Shown: piece after piece, positions 9,212 through 11,854 of the stretch | Position numbering within the stretch: position 1 is the first letter of the stretch | Layout: every line of letters begins with the position of its first letter | UHGV virus genome: UHGV-1740647 | Strand: one strand, 5' to 3' | Source of the DNA: a virus | Length of the DNA stretch: 13,384 nucleotides | The notes under the pieces: model-generated | Told to the model about the DNA's origin: nothing | What the model saw: the letters and a program-made list of their open reading frames with translations, nothing else | The model's database searches: none | Made by a program: the position numbers and the translations under genes

Positions 9212-10477
9212 TTACTGCGCGTAATTCTGTTTCAGACCACGGATAAACTCAGATGCAGAGGCCGCGCTATCATCCCTGGCCTGTTCCTCCCTGGCCTTTT
9301 GAATACGGAGAAAATTCGCATACCCGTGTTCCAGCAATTTCTGATTCTGAGGCTCCAGCATTTCTGGCTGACGGGAGGCCACTTCTCTGGCAAATGCCTG
9401 CTTATCCGGATCATCACCCGCCCAACTGGTAATCCCTTGTTGAATTTTTTGCTGCTGAATTTGCTGCTGATACTGCGGCAGTCCCATCGAAGCATAATAT
9501 TGCGTCACTGCTCCCTGCGCATCACCGCCGTCCTGTGCAACCTTTATCGCTACCTGGCTGGCTCCTTTCTGAAGTTGATCCGCAGAAAGTCCCTGCTGCT
9601 TCGGCGTGAAATAGCCGAAATTTTTCGAAATTTCCGCGAATTTACTGCGTTCCCTGACAAGCTCAACAGCCTTATCAACAGGCACCGCCAGCACGGTTTG
9701 ATCATCAGGATGTGCACTGCCGTATTCCGTAACGGGTTTATGTGCTGTAGAGCCATCACTGTATGTGAGATCAAGGCCGATAAGTATGTACCCTTCCTGC
9801 TGTGCCGGTACTATACTGCCAATCCTGGCCTCTTTTATCGTCTTTTTCCCGGTTGAATCGGGCATGCCAATACGCTGTTGCAGTTCCGGGCCAAACACCC
9901 CGGAAAGGACATCAAGATTCTCCGGCGTATTAAGTGAAGCGATAGCCCTGTCTGGCTTGTCATCAAAGATTTTTTGCAGGTTGTTCACGGCCTGACCCGC
10001 TTTCGCTACATAGCCATCATTCGCCATCAGCCTCAGCGGATTACCCTCTGACAACTGGCCGTAAAGACGCATTGCTGCATCCCGATCGCCAGCATCCACA
10101 GCCTTTCCAAGCGCCGCCATCACAGGCTGATCGCGCGCCAGCATATCGTTATACTCAAGCCGTCGCTGGTTGTATTTCTGCATCCGGAGTCGCTGCTGCT
10201 CCATACCCAGCGACGCATTCCGGTAATTCTGGTTGGCGTTAAACTCCCTTTCCTGCAGTGCATAATTACGGTCGTCGACTTTGGCTCTGTAATCAAAGTT
10301 CCGCTGATCAACGTCTTTATTATGTTCAAACTGCGACTGTGCAAATTCAAAATCGCGCTCGTTATTTTTCTGTTGTTGAGCAAGCTGTGCTTCTCGCAAA
10401 CCAAGTTCCTTACGACGGGTCATTGCCTGGTCAACCGTGCTGAATCCGGCAAGTAAACCCTGTGCAAATCCGCTCAT
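9212..10477 (-). CDS. hypothetical Gln/Asn/Arg-rich protein, probable internal virion (ejection) protein
   Basis: 421-aa ORF with ATG at 10477 preceded by GGAG (TAA-GGAGTGGTGA-ATG) directly after the upstream gene's stop. Composition and predicted coiled-coil N-terminus resemble podophage internal/ejection proteins; no recognisable catalytic motif. Confidence 0.7.
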   Translation of the reverse strand: MSGFAQGLLAGFSTVDQAMTRRKELGLREAQLAQQQKNNERDFEFAQSQFEHNKDVDQRNFDYRAKVDDRNYALQEREFNANQNYRNASLGMEQQRLRMQKYNQRRLEYNDMLARDQPVMAALGKAVDAGDRDAAMRLYGQLSEGNPLRLMANDGYVAKAGQAVNNLQKIFDDKPDRAIASLNTPENLDVLSGVFGPELQQRIGMPDSTGKKTIKEARIGSIVPAQQEGYILIGLDLTYSDGSTAHKPVTEYGSAHPDDQTVLAVPVDKAVELVRERSKFAEISKNFGYFTPKQQGLSADQLQKGASQVAIKVAQDGGDAQGAVTQYYASMGLPQYQQQIQQQKIQQGITSWAGDDPDKQAFAREVASRQPEMLEPQNQKLLEHGYANFLRIQKAREEQARDDSAASASEFIRGLKQNYAQ

Positions 10478-10487
10478 TCACCACTCC

Positions 10488-10739
10488 TTAAAACAAAGAA
10501 CCAGCAATACCACCTATGACAGCACCAATAGCCGCACCGGGGAGACCACCAACAGCAGCGCCCATAGCTGCACCCGTACCAATTCCCGTGCCGATATTCT
10601 GTTTGTTCTGCGCTTTCTGTTGCGCCGCCATCTGTTTGTTCGCGGCCTCAATTTCTTCACGTCGTCTGTCGGCATCACTTATTCCCTGTAATGCCTCACG
10701 CCGCGACTGATTCGCAATATCCAGTAAACCGTATCCCAT
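10488..10739 (-). CDS. small glycine-zipper membrane protein
   Basis: 83-aa ORF with ATG at 10739 preceded by GGGGG. Charged N-terminal half followed by GTGIGTGAAMGAAVGGLPGAAIGAVIGGIAGSLF, a GxxxG-repeat glycine-zipper transmembrane segment. Stop is 10 nt from the next start. Confidence 0.7.
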   Translation of the reverse strand: MGYGLLDIANQSRREALQGISDADRRREEIEAANKQMAAQQKAQNKQNIGTGIGTGAAMGAAVGGLPGAAIGAVIGGIAGSLF

Positions 10740-10748
10740 ATTGCCCCC

Positions 10749-11201
10749 TTACGCTGACACCAGTTTTCCGCCAACACTCAGTTGTTGTCTTGCAGGTGCA
10801 GAAGCCCCCGTCAGTATGTTCATCTGGCGATCCTGCTCTGCTTCACGGATACCATTTTTCGCGCCAGCAATTGCCAGAGCATTACGCAAACCCAGTGTGT
10901 TACTGTTGGGATTATCCGGGCGGCTTACCCCGTATCTCGCCATCTGGTTATCCTGCGCCATCTGCGCTGTACGGAGACTGGAAGTGGCAAGGCCGCCCAC
11001 CCGGGCAAGCTGTGCATTCATCAGGCTGTTGTTCTCGCCAAGGTCAGCCAGCCTTGCCACGCGGGGCAAATATCTGGTTCGCCAGTCGTCGTATTGTTGG
11101 CGTGTCAGCGCTGCTGACGTCTGCCAGTCACCCTGTGGACGGGCAGCTCCGGTATAACCGTATCTCGCAAGTGTTTCGTATTTACCGTACTCCATAATCA
11201 C
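10749..11201 (-). CDS. hypothetical protein (operon member)
   Basis: ORF track start at 11201 is GTG. An ATG at 11195 (MEYGKYE...) with GGAG about 10 nt upstream is the more likely start and lies 2 nt after the TGA of the upstream 218-aa gene, suggesting translational coupling. No recognised domain. Confidence 0.65.
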   Translation of the reverse strand: MIMEYGKYETLARYGYTGAARPQGDWQTSAALTRQQYDDWRTRYLPRVARLADLGENNSLMNAQLARVGGLATSSLRTAQMAQDNQMARYGVSRPDNPNSNTLGLRNALAIAGAKNGIREAEQDRQMNILTGASAPARQQLSVGGKLVSA

Positions 11202-11854
11202 AGTCTCCAGTTCTGAGCCTGATGCTGAATGGCATTAGCGCCGGTGCCAGGTGTTTTAGCACCGCCACTTCCTCCGCTACCGCCAGCCTTATACATCGCA
11301 TATGCACCTACCGCACCCAAACCAGCGCCAACAAGAGAGGCTCGCCCCTGCTGTTTCGTAAACGCAGCCTGTGCGTCCGATTTAGCTTTTGCCAGACTGC
11401 TGTCTGCCAGCGAGTTAAAACTCTGTAACGCATCCGCCTTTTGACCAGAACCGAGAGCAGCAACATCCTGTAGCCCGGCAACATACTTATCTGCCTGCGA
11501 TACCTGCCCCCGTGTGGTTGTGTCAATCTGCCCGGTTACCTGATCACTCTGGTTCGCATTCATTACCGCGTTAAAGCGACCACTGGACGGGTCAACACCG
11601 GACTGAGCAAGATTACCCGCCAGCTCCTTCCGTGCTTCGCCAAACTGTTTCTGATACCCCAGATTTGTGGTGCCAGCAATATTGTCGTACTGCTGCTCAC
11701 TGTTCAGGTCATCGACCTTTTCCATGAAGTTATCTTCAGCCGGGCGGAGGATTTTTTGATAATCCTGCCACCCTTTCCAGGCCACTTCTTCCTGTGCTAT
11801 TTGCGCTGCTGTTGGTTTTACTTTGGTATCACCACCGCCTTTTTTTCCGCCCAT
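11198..11854 (-). CDS. hypothetical Gly/Ala/Gln-rich protein with a C-terminal glycine-zipper-like segment
   Basis: 218-aa ORF, ATG at 11854 preceded by GGGGG. Begins MGGKKGGGDTK; C-terminal LVGAGLGAVGAYAMYKAGGSGGSGG. First gene of the tightly spaced operon. Confidence 0.7.
   Translation of the reverse strand: MGGKKGGGDTKVKPTAAQIAQEEVAWKGWQDYQKILRPAEDNFMEKVDDLNSEQQYDNIAGTTNLGYQKQFGEARKELAGNLAQSGVDPSSGRFNAVMNANQSDQVTGQIDTTTRGQVSQADKYVAGLQDVAALGSGQKADALQSFNSLADSSLAKAKSDAQAAFTKQQGRASLVGAGLGAVGAYAMYKAGGSGGSGGAKTPGTGANAIQHQAQNWRL

Follow-up and report, generated by a model that had tools for sequence, protein, structure and literature searches.

The four genes that are the subject of this study lie on the minus strand of a 13,384-nucleotide stretch of viral DNA (UHGV virus genome UHGV-1740647; the whole stretch is referred to here as the window), where they encode proteins of 218, 148, 83, and 421 amino acids (aa) ahead of an open reading frame (ORF) for a giant protein of 2784 aa. 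Sequence matching identified the window as part of the late region of a prophage of the short-tailed Shiga toxin (Stx) type (933W/Sp5/phi24B) and the four genes as ORF76 to ORF79 of phage Sp5. As set out below, we think it probable that these genes, together with a 133-aa gene in front of them and the giant gene behind them, constitute a cassette for internal-virion (ejection) proteins.

The locus

The 3.4 kb around the four genes matched 186 phage records at 80 to 95% identity, nearly all of them short-tailed Stx-converting phages (Sepvirinae), and the same region is present in 424 of 5426 complete Escherichia coli genomes; 11 records matched at 99% identity or more. The order on the minus strand is a Lom-like ORF, the 133-aa ORF, the ORFs of 218, 148 (or 150), 83, and 421 aa, and then the 2784-aa ORF. 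These sizes pair one to one with those of phi24B and of Sp5 ORF75 to ORF80 (133, 218, 148, 83, 421, and 2793 aa; supplementary table of Mondal et al. 2016, PMC5155283), with protein identities of 83 to 99% to phi24B. In Shigella phage 75/02 Stx, the cassette and the giant gene close a late operon that runs through terminase, portal, capsid, adaptors, fiber, a nozzle-like gene, central fiber, and morons including Lom before reaching them. The features of the window are as follows.

11946..12347, minus strand: 133-aa protein (Sp5 ORF75, phrog_610), from PHROG match, synteny, and an AlphaFold2 (AF2) model
11877..11896, minus strand: terminator-like hairpin and T-run 5' of the 218-aa gene, from consensus scan and sequence only
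11198..11854, minus strand: 218-aa protein (Sp5 ORF76, phi24B gp51, phrog_611), from PHROG, proteomics, and profiles
10749..11195, minus strand: 148-aa protein (Sp5 ORF77, phi24B gp50, phrog_596), counted from the ATG at 11195 (a start at GTG 11201 would give 150 aa)
10488..10739, minus strand: 83-aa protein (Sp5 ORF78, phrog_594; RefSeq name "bacteriocin"), from PHROG, profiles, and proteomics
9212..10477, minus strand: 421-aa protein (Sp5 ORF79, phi24B gp48, phrog_601), from PHROG, genetics, and proteomics
9161..9180, minus strand: terminator-like hairpin and T-run within the 68 nt that separate the 421-aa gene from the giant ORF, from scan and sequence
789..9143, minus strand: giant 2784-aa polyvalent protein (Sp5 ORF80, phi24B gp47), from Pfam domains, genetics, and proteomics

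The four ORFs are tightly packed, as a preliminary description of this sequence had stated, with gaps of 2, 9, and 10 nt, and each has its own purine-rich Shine-Dalgarno sequence (GGGGG, GGAG, GGGGG, and AGGAG); the TGA-tt-ATG junction between the 218- and 148-aa genes is also as described. The length of 150 aa originally given for the second protein is obtained from a GTG that overlaps the preceding stop codon, whereas Sp5 and phi24B are annotated from the ATG at 11195, which yields the 148 aa used here. The four genes had been presented as a leader of the giant ORF, but the 68-nt spacer with its terminator-like hairpin (9180-9161) stands between them, so that translational coupling is absent. 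Likewise, the proteins had been said to match no family that could be named, but they belong to PHROGs 611, 596, 594, and 601, all labelled "unknown function," and an NCBIfam scan found no family for any of the five small proteins. The term "Q/N-rich" fits them loosely, Q+N being a modest 13 to 17%, and of the two glycine-zipper ends that had been proposed, that of the 83-aa protein is convincing, whereas the Gly stretch of the 218-aa protein is internal (residues 172 to 188) and weakly hydrophobic. Terminator-like hairpins with T-runs bracket the four-gene set, one lying before the 218-aa gene and the other between the 421-aa gene and the giant ORF; such a pair might adjust how strongly the parts of the Q-antiterminated late transcript are expressed relative to one another.

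Conservation of the gene set

Distant homologs of the 218- and 421-aa proteins were found by tblastn in ~100 Vibrio phages and in Aeromonas phage phiARM81mr. The gene order in these phages is nozzle, central fiber, and then proteins of ~120 to 130, 200 to 212, 117 to 124, 77 to 85, and 442 to 466 aa followed by a giant protein of >3100 aa, and, compared in pairs, each cassette protein resembles the corresponding protein of the window. When IMG/VR was scanned with the 218-aa family profile, 80 loci came up, in 76 of which the five small-gene families occur in the same order and tightly spaced; three of the other four end or break inside the 421-aa gene, and one (L059) has an in-frame deletion. 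We considered the last as a natural locus lacking the 148- and 83-aa genes and rejected it, as the deletion joins approximately the first 35 codons of the 148-aa gene to the 421-aa gene. The deletion has also taken away the 83-aa gene and, from the 421-aa protein, the N-terminal motif that is otherwise conserved (L059, 6646-8043), and the locus is probably a defective, decaying prophage.

All 80 IMG/VR loci, like the Aeromonas and Vibrio phages, encode a homolog of the 133-aa protein directly ahead of the 218-aa homolog, and the two genes abut in most relatives outside the Stx group. The conserved unit therefore consists of five small genes plus the giant gene rather than the four-gene unit first described, with the 133-aa gene (11946-12347) travelling along. 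Ralstonia phage GP4 and the Bcep22-like phage BcepMigl have the layout acyl-CoA N-acyltransferase, a protein of 277 to 331 aa, phosphoadenosine phosphosulfate (PAPS) reductase, a protein of 509 to 538 aa, and a giant protein. In the Bcep22-like phage JC1, gp64, gp68, and gp69, which match by position in the gene table, were found by mass spectrometry (MS) to be virion associated; the acetyltransferase and the PAPS reductase are not listed.

Genetics and virion proteomics of close relatives

Two of the checks proposed in the preliminary description, deletion of single genes and MS of virions, have in fact already been published, the former for Sp5 (PMC5155283) and the latter for phi24B. Mondal et al. 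(2016) made an in-frame deletion of every gene of unknown function in Sp5 and found that the ΔORF79 and ΔORF80 mutants gave zero plaques and zero lysogens, that both were complemented in trans, and that they had normal heads and contained DNase-resistant DNA at the wild-type level (PMC5155283). Deletion of ORF76, encoding the 218-aa protein, markedly reduced infectivity, and ORF75, ORF77, and ORF78 were non-essential (PMC5155283). Thus, a requirement for infectivity that acts after packaging is seen in Sp5 for the 421-aa and giant proteins, partially for the 218-aa protein, and not for the 148- and 83-aa proteins (PMC5155283).

Identity of the four window proteins to their counterparts amounts to 96, 97, 93, and 83% in phi24B, the virion of which has been analyzed using cryo-electron microscopy (cryo-EM) and proteomics (bioRxiv 10.64898/2026.04.10.717836). 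In the virion, the 421-, 218-, 148-, and 83-aa proteins had 1634, 523, 129, and 13 peptide-spectrum matches (PSMs), respectively, with 10962 for the giant gp47 and 2226 for the portal; in a batch sample, the 421-aa protein had 179 PSMs versus 101 for the portal (10.64898/2026.04.10.717836). The 421- and 218-aa proteins each peaked in a single gel slice, adjoining those of the major capsid protein and adaptor 1, which are of similar mass (10.64898/2026.04.10.717836). When PSMs per residue were scaled to 12 portal copies, the spectral counts gave rough estimates of ~37 copies of the 421-aa protein, ~32 of the 218-aa protein, ~48 of the 148-aa protein, ~6 of the 83-aa protein, and ~23 of the giant protein. 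As a control, the same scaling returned 6.2 for the nozzle (true value, 6), 22 for the fiber (true value, 18), and 31 for gp84, which is the authors' own value. The scaled figures rule out trace contamination as the source of the 421-aa protein.

The phi24B cryo-EM model comprises the capsid, cement and decoration proteins, portal, two adaptor rings, nozzle, fibers, and needle and contains none of the four proteins (10.64898/2026.04.10.717836). Taken together, the phi24B MS data and the cryo-EM model place the four proteins in the virion but outside the icosahedral shell and the symmetric tail, as expected of the "candidate ejectosome" that had been suggested from the window sequence. The phi24B authors proposed gp47 as the sole ejection protein and dropped "a transcription regulation factor" and "a homolog of a bacteriocin" as contaminants by annotation alone (10.64898/2026.04.10.717836). 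The 421-aa protein appears in their proteome table as "Transcription factor?" (10.64898/2026.04.10.717836), a label that originates from a phi24B GenBank note reading [quoted passage not shown] An ejection role would imply that two genuine virion proteins were discarded in that 2026 study.

Similarity of the 83- and 218-aa proteins to P22 gp7

The 83-aa protein starts with a conserved MGYGL, continues with a helix, and then forms a glycine-zipper hairpin that has GGP at its center and SLF at the C terminus. The zipper occupies the C-terminal 35 residues, contains eight GxxxG motifs, and reaches a maximum of 1.71 on the Kyte-Doolittle scale over 19 residues (KD19). The pattern G.G.G…GGP.GA.IGA.VG.LA.SLF is kept across genera, from E. 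coli to Vibrio, and is therefore not a chance feature. The score against Gly-zipper_YMGG (PF13441) was 26.7 bits (E 4.5e-6), just under the 28.9-bit gathering threshold, and the motif itself is present. An apparent fusion of the 83- and 421-aa proteins (P0261) was left unused, as its C terminus looks frameshifted.

The Pfam family of P22 gp7 (PF25688) matched four of six scanned relatives of the 83-aa protein (E 2e-4 to 0.04; 14 to 21.5 bits), with the matches lying on the last 60 to 80 profile positions and all falling under the 28-bit gathering cutoff; the 83- and 218-aa proteins of the window gave no PF25688 match even at E ≤ 10. The C termini read …GGLPGAAIGAVIGGIAGSLF for the window 83-aa protein, …TPWGAAIGGGIGLLGSLF for P22 gp7, and …GGPWGAVIGAGVGYIGSLF for a Vibrio homolog, with the zipper ending in G-S-L-F. 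In hhalign, the 83-aa family matched the gp7 C terminus with a probability of 71 to 86%. Because glycine zippers are low-complexity sequences, we used composition-preserving shuffles as the reference, and the 83-aa profile scored 24.3 bits on the gp7 C terminus versus 7.0±2.7 on the shuffles, none of 2000 of which reached that score.

Similarity at the other end of gp7 was found in the 218-aa protein. P22 gp7 has a 20-residue leader that is removed by the host protease OpdA (RefSeq note), and the N-terminal reference pattern of gp7 is KGGKGG…, then L-K-P-F-x-P-L-x-D-K-Y-I. The corresponding sequences are KGGKGGADKSAKYAAEAQ…NNLKPFTPLADKYI in mature gp7, MGGKKGGGDTKVKPTAAQ…QKILRPAEDNFMEKV in the 218-aa protein, and MGGKGGGDAP…KNTFQPLQDEFIKTA in GP4 gp71. 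Residues 5 to 53 of the 218-aa protein align to gp7 residues 25 to 73, that is, from the OpdA cleavage point, with an hhalign probability of only 16 to 26% (E 7e-4 to 1.6e-3), and the 218-aa profile scored 15.9 bits on mature gp7 versus 3.2±2.6 on shuffles, of which 1 in 2000 scored as high. This gp7-like part includes MGGKKGGG…, an L-x-P motif, and a GVDPxSGRF motif; at residues 172 to 188 of 218, the protein has the Gly-rich stretch, which has a KD19 maximum of 1.04 and includes Arg in some homologs.

Gene order points the same way. P22 has nozzle gp10, needle gp26, gp14 (151 aa), gp7 (229 aa), gp20 (471 aa), and gp16 (609 aa), and the cassette follows this order and size series, its gp7-like genes coming after the nozzle, the needle, and the gp14 slot and before the gp20 slot. 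This remote similarity suggests that the 218-aa protein may correspond to the N-terminal part of gp7 and the 83-aa protein to its glycine-zipper C-terminal part.

The kinship of the 148-aa protein with the 218-aa protein rests on GP4 gp71, which the 218-aa family matched in hhalign with a probability of 96.7% and the 148-aa family matched, over the same region, with one of 83.8%; compared directly, the two families gave 41% over 111 columns. The motifs [WY]xx[WY]xxx[FY]xP and G[VI][DSN]P are common to the 218/148/gp71 group, and we regard the 148-aa protein as a probable distant paralog, or diverged duplicate, of the 218-aa core. The 148-aa profile scored no better on P22 gp7 than on composition-preserving shuffles. 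GP4 gp71 and BcepMigl gp19 themselves end in glycine zippers (…ALMVF and …GIMAF). With moderate confidence, we picture an ancestor that had a 218-like core with a terminal zipper and from which the Stx/Vibrio/Aeromonas lineage would have derived a 218-aa protein plus a diverged second copy split into proteins of 148 and 83 aa.

The 421-aa protein and a natural fusion of its family to a gp16 homolog

Among 1.84 billion representative proteins, 203 relatives of the 421-aa protein were detected with a profile, mostly of 400 to 580 aa and with a strongly conserved N terminus, G-[LF]-A-[DE]-G-F-[LM]-A-G-F. P22 gp20 starts …GGFLAGIG, and BcepMigl gp17 and GP4 gp69 carry the same kind of motif. The deep 421-aa profile scored 27.8 bits on BcepMigl gp17 (0 of 1000 shuffles), 16.3 on GP4 gp69 (3 of 1000), and 20.7 on P22 gp20 (4 of 1000), the last score coming mainly from a common WAxGDP segment that is not collinear, so that short motifs (GFLAG, WAxGDP) are all that is shared. 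In hhalign, the family gave a probability of ≤3% against P22 gp20 and no significant match to GP4 gp69 beyond the N-terminal motif. Searches of PDB sequences with single proteins and with family profiles returned nothing meaningful, and P22 gp7 as a solved chain did not turn up.

The strongest tie of the 421-aa family to ejection proteins is a natural fusion, P0274 (1386 aa). Residues 4 to 284 of this protein match the window 421-aa protein (28% identity, E 2e-21), and residues 911 to 1380 match P22 gp16 (36% identity, E 2e-77; precomputed Pfam hit Phage_P22_gp16). The fusion gene lies at L167 8001-12161 (GCA_051468635.1, CP195798.1) in a chromosomal island that also encodes AlpA, a primase (Zn_Ribbon_Prim, Toprim_3, DUF927), Bro-N, and TumE. 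No capsid or tail genes were present within 8 kb on each side, which gives the island the look of a satellite and not that of a whole phage.

For the 421-aa protein, the AF2 model (pLDDT 68, pTM 0.35) predicts a helix of ~115 residues that is followed by a helical region and a small beta domain; the C-terminal domain is again helical. Homolog searches gave only near-identical 421-aa proteins from E. coli and Aeromonas, so that the underlying alignment was shallow and the model is mediocre. A Foldseek comparison of the model with the PDB gave a best E of 0.16 and TM scores of ≤0.11.

Within E. coli, alleles of the 421-aa gene are strongly mosaic (74 to 94% identity), with alternative sequences at residues ~55 to 80 and 120 to 150 and in the last 120 residues, compared with 94 to 99% conservation of the neighboring 218-, 148-, and 133-aa genes. 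Many records of Stx2a-converting phages (LC6160xx) have a ~1.27-kb insertion in the 421-aa gene near codon 82. An example lies at ~1240-2480 of L170 (LC616032.1), corresponding to ~10231 in the window, and contains an IS3-type transposase pair (HTH_Tnp_1, rve). Because ORF79 is essential in Sp5, Stx2a prophages with the insertion sequence (IS) in this gene should yield no infectious particles, a predicted block that bears on the spread of the toxin genes.

The 133-aa and giant proteins

The AF2 model of the 133-aa protein (pLDDT 70, pTM 0.62) is ordered helix-helix, three strands, helix, strand, helix, and two strands. Compared with BFVD by Foldseek, it matched models of viral acetyltransferases, N-acyltransferases, and GNAT proteins (E 1e-6 to 1e-3; eight matches at E ≤ 1e-3), and on this model the fold would be GNAT-like. 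The protein had no Pfam or NCBIfam match, the canonical acyl-CoA motif R/Q-x-x-G-x-G/A was not seen by eye, and the profile scored not above shuffles on P22 gp14, GP4 gp72, or BcepMigl gp20. Its gene occupies the slot of P22 gp14 (DUF2824), which is also the slot of the annotated acyl-CoA N-acyltransferase in GP4 and the Bcep22-like phages. The protein was not found in the part of the phi24B proteome table that was covered (10.64898/2026.04.10.717836), and it is probably absent from the virion.

One could imagine that a GNAT-fold 133-aa protein N-acylates the ejection proteins, an acetyl or fatty-acyl group on the exposed N-terminal Gly priming them for packaging or membrane insertion; if so, genome delivery would involve lipidation or acylation by an enzyme that the phage itself encodes. 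The downstream ejection-type proteins almost all start with Met-Gly (MGGKKGGG, MGYGL, MGYAAD/MGQASD) or with Met-Ser/Gly/Ala, and one BFVD neighbor of the 133-aa model is annotated as an N-myristoyltransferase N-terminal domain. The JC1 counterpart, gp63, is missing from the JC1 virion list, which, like the lack of the 133-aa protein from the portion of the phi24B table covered, is consistent with the idea. Against it, ORF75 is non-essential in Sp5, there is no evident acyl-CoA motif, and a small residue at position 2 is common generally, and we consider acylation improbable.

The giant protein has LPD5, LPD1, MuF_C, and LPD38 domains (Pfam) and sits in the slot of P22 gp16 and of the virion RNA polymerase of N4. 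It showed no similarity to P22 gp16 and has no segment with a KD19 value of >1.4; in relatives, the protein is essential and is packaged in the virion. Besides GP4 and the Bcep22-like phages, tblastn with the region common to them also picked out a Bacteroides phage and Methanosarcina virus MetMV (31% identity, 84% of the query covered), a host span that is unusually wide for that domain.

Interpretation and alternatives

We conclude, with a probability of roughly 0.72, that the four genes, the 133-aa gene, and the giant gene together encode the internal-virion (ejection) proteins of an Stx-type phage with a short tail and a T=9 capsid. The cassette would be equivalent to gp14-gp7-gp20-gp16 of P22 and gp14-gp15-gp16 of T7, the 421-aa protein taking the slot of P22 gp20 and T7 gp15. 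This conclusion draws on the Sp5 genetics, the phi24B proteomics, the remote similarity to gp7, and the P22-like gene order, and it makes the earlier suggestion of an ejectosome the best-supported explanation of the locus, with no search having placed the proteins in scaffold, decoration, or tail-tube families. An ejection role would also explain why ORF79 and ORF80 are essential after packaging. In such a scheme, the cassette proteins would be loaded into the procapsid around the portal and, upon release of the central needle, would exit through the tail ahead of the DNA. The gp7-like proteins, the 218-aa protein helped by those of 148 and 83 aa, might then insert in the outer membrane via their Gly-rich helices, the largely helical 421-aa protein could serve as the conduit across the periplasm, and the giant protein would reach and cross the inner membrane, thereby delivering its enzymatic domains.

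Several observations weigh against this interpretation. Every sequence link to P22 lies under curated thresholds, that of the 218-aa protein reaching only 16 to 26% in hhalign, and composition accounts in part for the glycine-zipper matches. In the 218-aa protein, the hydrophobic stretch is too weak for a classical transmembrane helix. The link of the 421-aa protein to gp20 is weak, Pfam Inj_translocase (PF16928) was unmatched by the window protein and by six diverse members of its family, and Foldseek searches of the PDB and BFVD with the mediocre AF2 model found no neighbor outside the protein's own family. Two of the four genes, those for the 148- and 83-aa proteins, are dispensable in Sp5, and the copy numbers, being derived from spectral counts, are rough. 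Exit from the capsid, membrane entry, pore formation, and the role of each protein are steps that we infer. P22 mutants lacking ejection proteins form normal-looking tailed particles. Mondal et al. assigned ORF79 and ORF80 to tail formation, as an anti-fiber antibody left the mutant heads unlabeled ("data not shown") (PMC5155283). A pure ejection role leaves this lack of fiber labelling unexplained; one possibility is that an internal core is needed for the portal to accept the tail.

Among the alternatives, the one that survives best is that the small proteins are packaging and assembly factors that bring the giant "DarB-like" protein into the head, in the way that Hdf, DarA, and DdrA serve DarB in P1, and form no channel. 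The small genes always adjoin a giant LPD/DarB-like gene, their products are virion associated in a way that resembles P1 DarA, the phenotypes of ΔORF79 and ΔORF80 are identical, and the JC1 authors themselves raise the P1 analogy. However, the ΔORF79 and ΔORF80 particles are non-infectious even on the non-restricting K-12 host of origin, so that the giant protein is not merely anti-restriction cargo; the similarity to gp7 and the fusion to gp16 tie the set to phages that have no giant cargo; and the Pfam and PHROG scans yielded no P1 Dar family match. We therefore regard a set devoted to cargo loading as unlikely, although loading and ejection are not mutually exclusive roles.

Somewhat less likely still is the view of Mondal et al. 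that the 421-aa protein, and perhaps others of the set, builds or attaches the short tail. It fits the DNA-full ΔORF79 and ΔORF80 heads that the anti-tail-fiber antibody does not label, but the negative immuno-electron microscopy result is among data not shown, and wild-type tails were themselves seen only occasionally (PMC5155283). Moreover, the phi24B cryo-EM structure explains the portal, two adaptor rings, nozzle, six fibers, and needle without these proteins, and ~30 to 50 copies are ill suited to an unseen 6- or 12-fold tail ring.

The last alternative, that the database labels are correct and that a bacteriocin-like or lysogenic-conversion membrane peptide (83 aa) and a transcription factor (421 aa) both contaminated the preparations, agrees with the RefSeq "bacteriocin" name, the weak Bacteriocin_IIc match, the GenBank transcription note, and the contaminant call of the phi24B authors but is largely refuted and very improbable, as the Bacteriocin_IIc match is below threshold and confined to the Gly-rich stretch, the 421-aa protein exceeds the portal in PSMs per residue, peaks in a single slice beside the 45-kDa major capsid protein, is essential after DNA packaging, and has no DNA-binding domain in Pfam, and both genes hold a fixed place within the structural module of podophages that are distantly related, lytic as well as temperate. 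Specifically, the Bacteriocin_IIc score was 19.3 bits versus a cutoff of 27.1, with residues 47 to 80 of the protein on profile positions 22 to 56 of 59. The leader end of the profile (positions 1 to 21) aligned to no part of the 83-aa protein, the MGYGLLD… N terminus of which is kept as part of a virion protein, and we rejected the name "bacteriocin" for it, as we did "transcription factor" for the 421-aa protein.

Other features of the window

The ORF of the Lom/Ail family (12777-13250, minus strand) encodes 157 aa from a TTG and covers profile positions 50 to 199, with in-frame stops upstream. Lom is 244 aa long in Sp5 and phi24B versus 157 aa in the window, and the gene appears to be truncated at its 5' end or disrupted in this prophage. 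An Rfam search found no RNA family in the window.

Relation to known ejection systems

Short-tailed Stx phages spread Shiga toxin genes, and their late genes are still annotated as "hypothetical," "bacteriocin," or "transcription factor." No paper assigning ORF76 to ORF79 to ejection proteins turned up in the literature searched. The cassette would therefore be an ejection machine of a known kind that has until now gone unrecognized in these medically important phages, and a P22-type assignment of ORF75 to ORF80 provides testable roles for five conserved genes.

In the podophage paradigm (T7, P22, N4/DEV), one operon encodes a small membrane protein, a mid-size helical protein, and a large protein, which provide the outer membrane pore, the periplasmic tunnel, and the inner membrane crossing, respectively; all three are carried in the head, and their expulsion precedes that of the DNA. 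The T7 set (gp14, gp15, gp16) resembles the cassette in its size series and order, with a small outer membrane protein, a helical tunnel protein, and a large inner membrane protein, but there is no detectable sequence relation, and T7 has a resolved core stack on its portal. Homologs have been assigned by "size and synteny rather than sequence." In the N4-like phage DEV (Schitoviridae), likewise a T=9 podophage, gp73, gp72, and gp71 are equivalent to N4 gp52, gp51, and gp50; gp73 forms pores, and gp72 forms the periplasmic tunnel. Here too, a small membrane protein and a protein of ~500 aa, all helical in the solved tunnel form, are co-transcribed with an ejected giant of ~3400 aa. However, the DEV giant is an RNA polymerase, whereas ours is an LPD/MuF_C polyvalent protein, and DEV gp72 has been resolved around the portal, whereas no such density was reported for phi24B. 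Sequence similarity to the DEV proteins was not seen, nor was it sought.

The Dar system of P1 (Hdf, DarA, DdrA, DdrB, Ulx, DarB) is similar in having small virion proteins encoded beside, and needed for, a giant packaged protein. It differs in that no homology was found in Pfam and PHROG scans and in that ORF79 and ORF80 are essential here, whereas P1 dar mutants are viable on non-restricting hosts.

The likeness to P22, alongside which the P22-type ejection-protein sets Sf6 gp11-13 and epsilon15 gp11-13 may be named, is closer. The nozzle and needle genes are followed in both by a gene for ~130 to 150 aa, one for ~220 aa, one for 420 to 470 aa, and one for a large protein. The N terminus of the 218-aa protein resembles mature gp7 (KGGKGG…, L-x-P), the C terminus of the 83-aa protein resembles that of gp7 (GGP/TPWGA…GSLF), copies number in the tens (12, 12, and 30 for P22), and a natural fusion joins the 421-aa family to gp16. 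On the other hand, gp7 is a single protein in P22, whereas here its two ends reside in separate genes with an extra 148-aa paralog; the 421-aa protein is unmatched to Inj_translocase; the last slot is taken by a 2784-aa polyvalent LPD protein unrelated to gp16; and the capsid is T=7 in P22 and T=9 here.

GP4 is, according to the phi24B authors, the closest structural relative of the phi24B virion (10.64898/2026.04.10.717836). GP4 gp72/gp71/gp69/gp68, BcepMigl gp20/gp19/gp17/gp16, and JC1 gp63/gp64/gp68/gp69 are the equivalents of the cassette, and we call them true homologs. GP4 gp71, with its own terminal glycine zipper, is an unsplit version of the 218-aa family, and the giants of these phages share the C-terminal region that bears LPD38 in the window protein. 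They differ from the window in that an acyl-CoA N-acyltransferase and a PAPS reductase are interleaved and in that there are no separate 148- and 83-aa genes. Taken together, the sequence comparisons would place the cassette with the uncharacterized virion proteins of GP4 and Bcep22 and, remotely, with P22 gp7, so that the split gp7 would join the T=9 podophages of the Stx, Vibrio, Aeromonas, GP4, and Bcep22 groups to P22. What distinguishes the cassette is the division of gp7 over separate genes, with an extra paralog, and the presence of a 2784-aa polyvalent protein in the gp16 slot.

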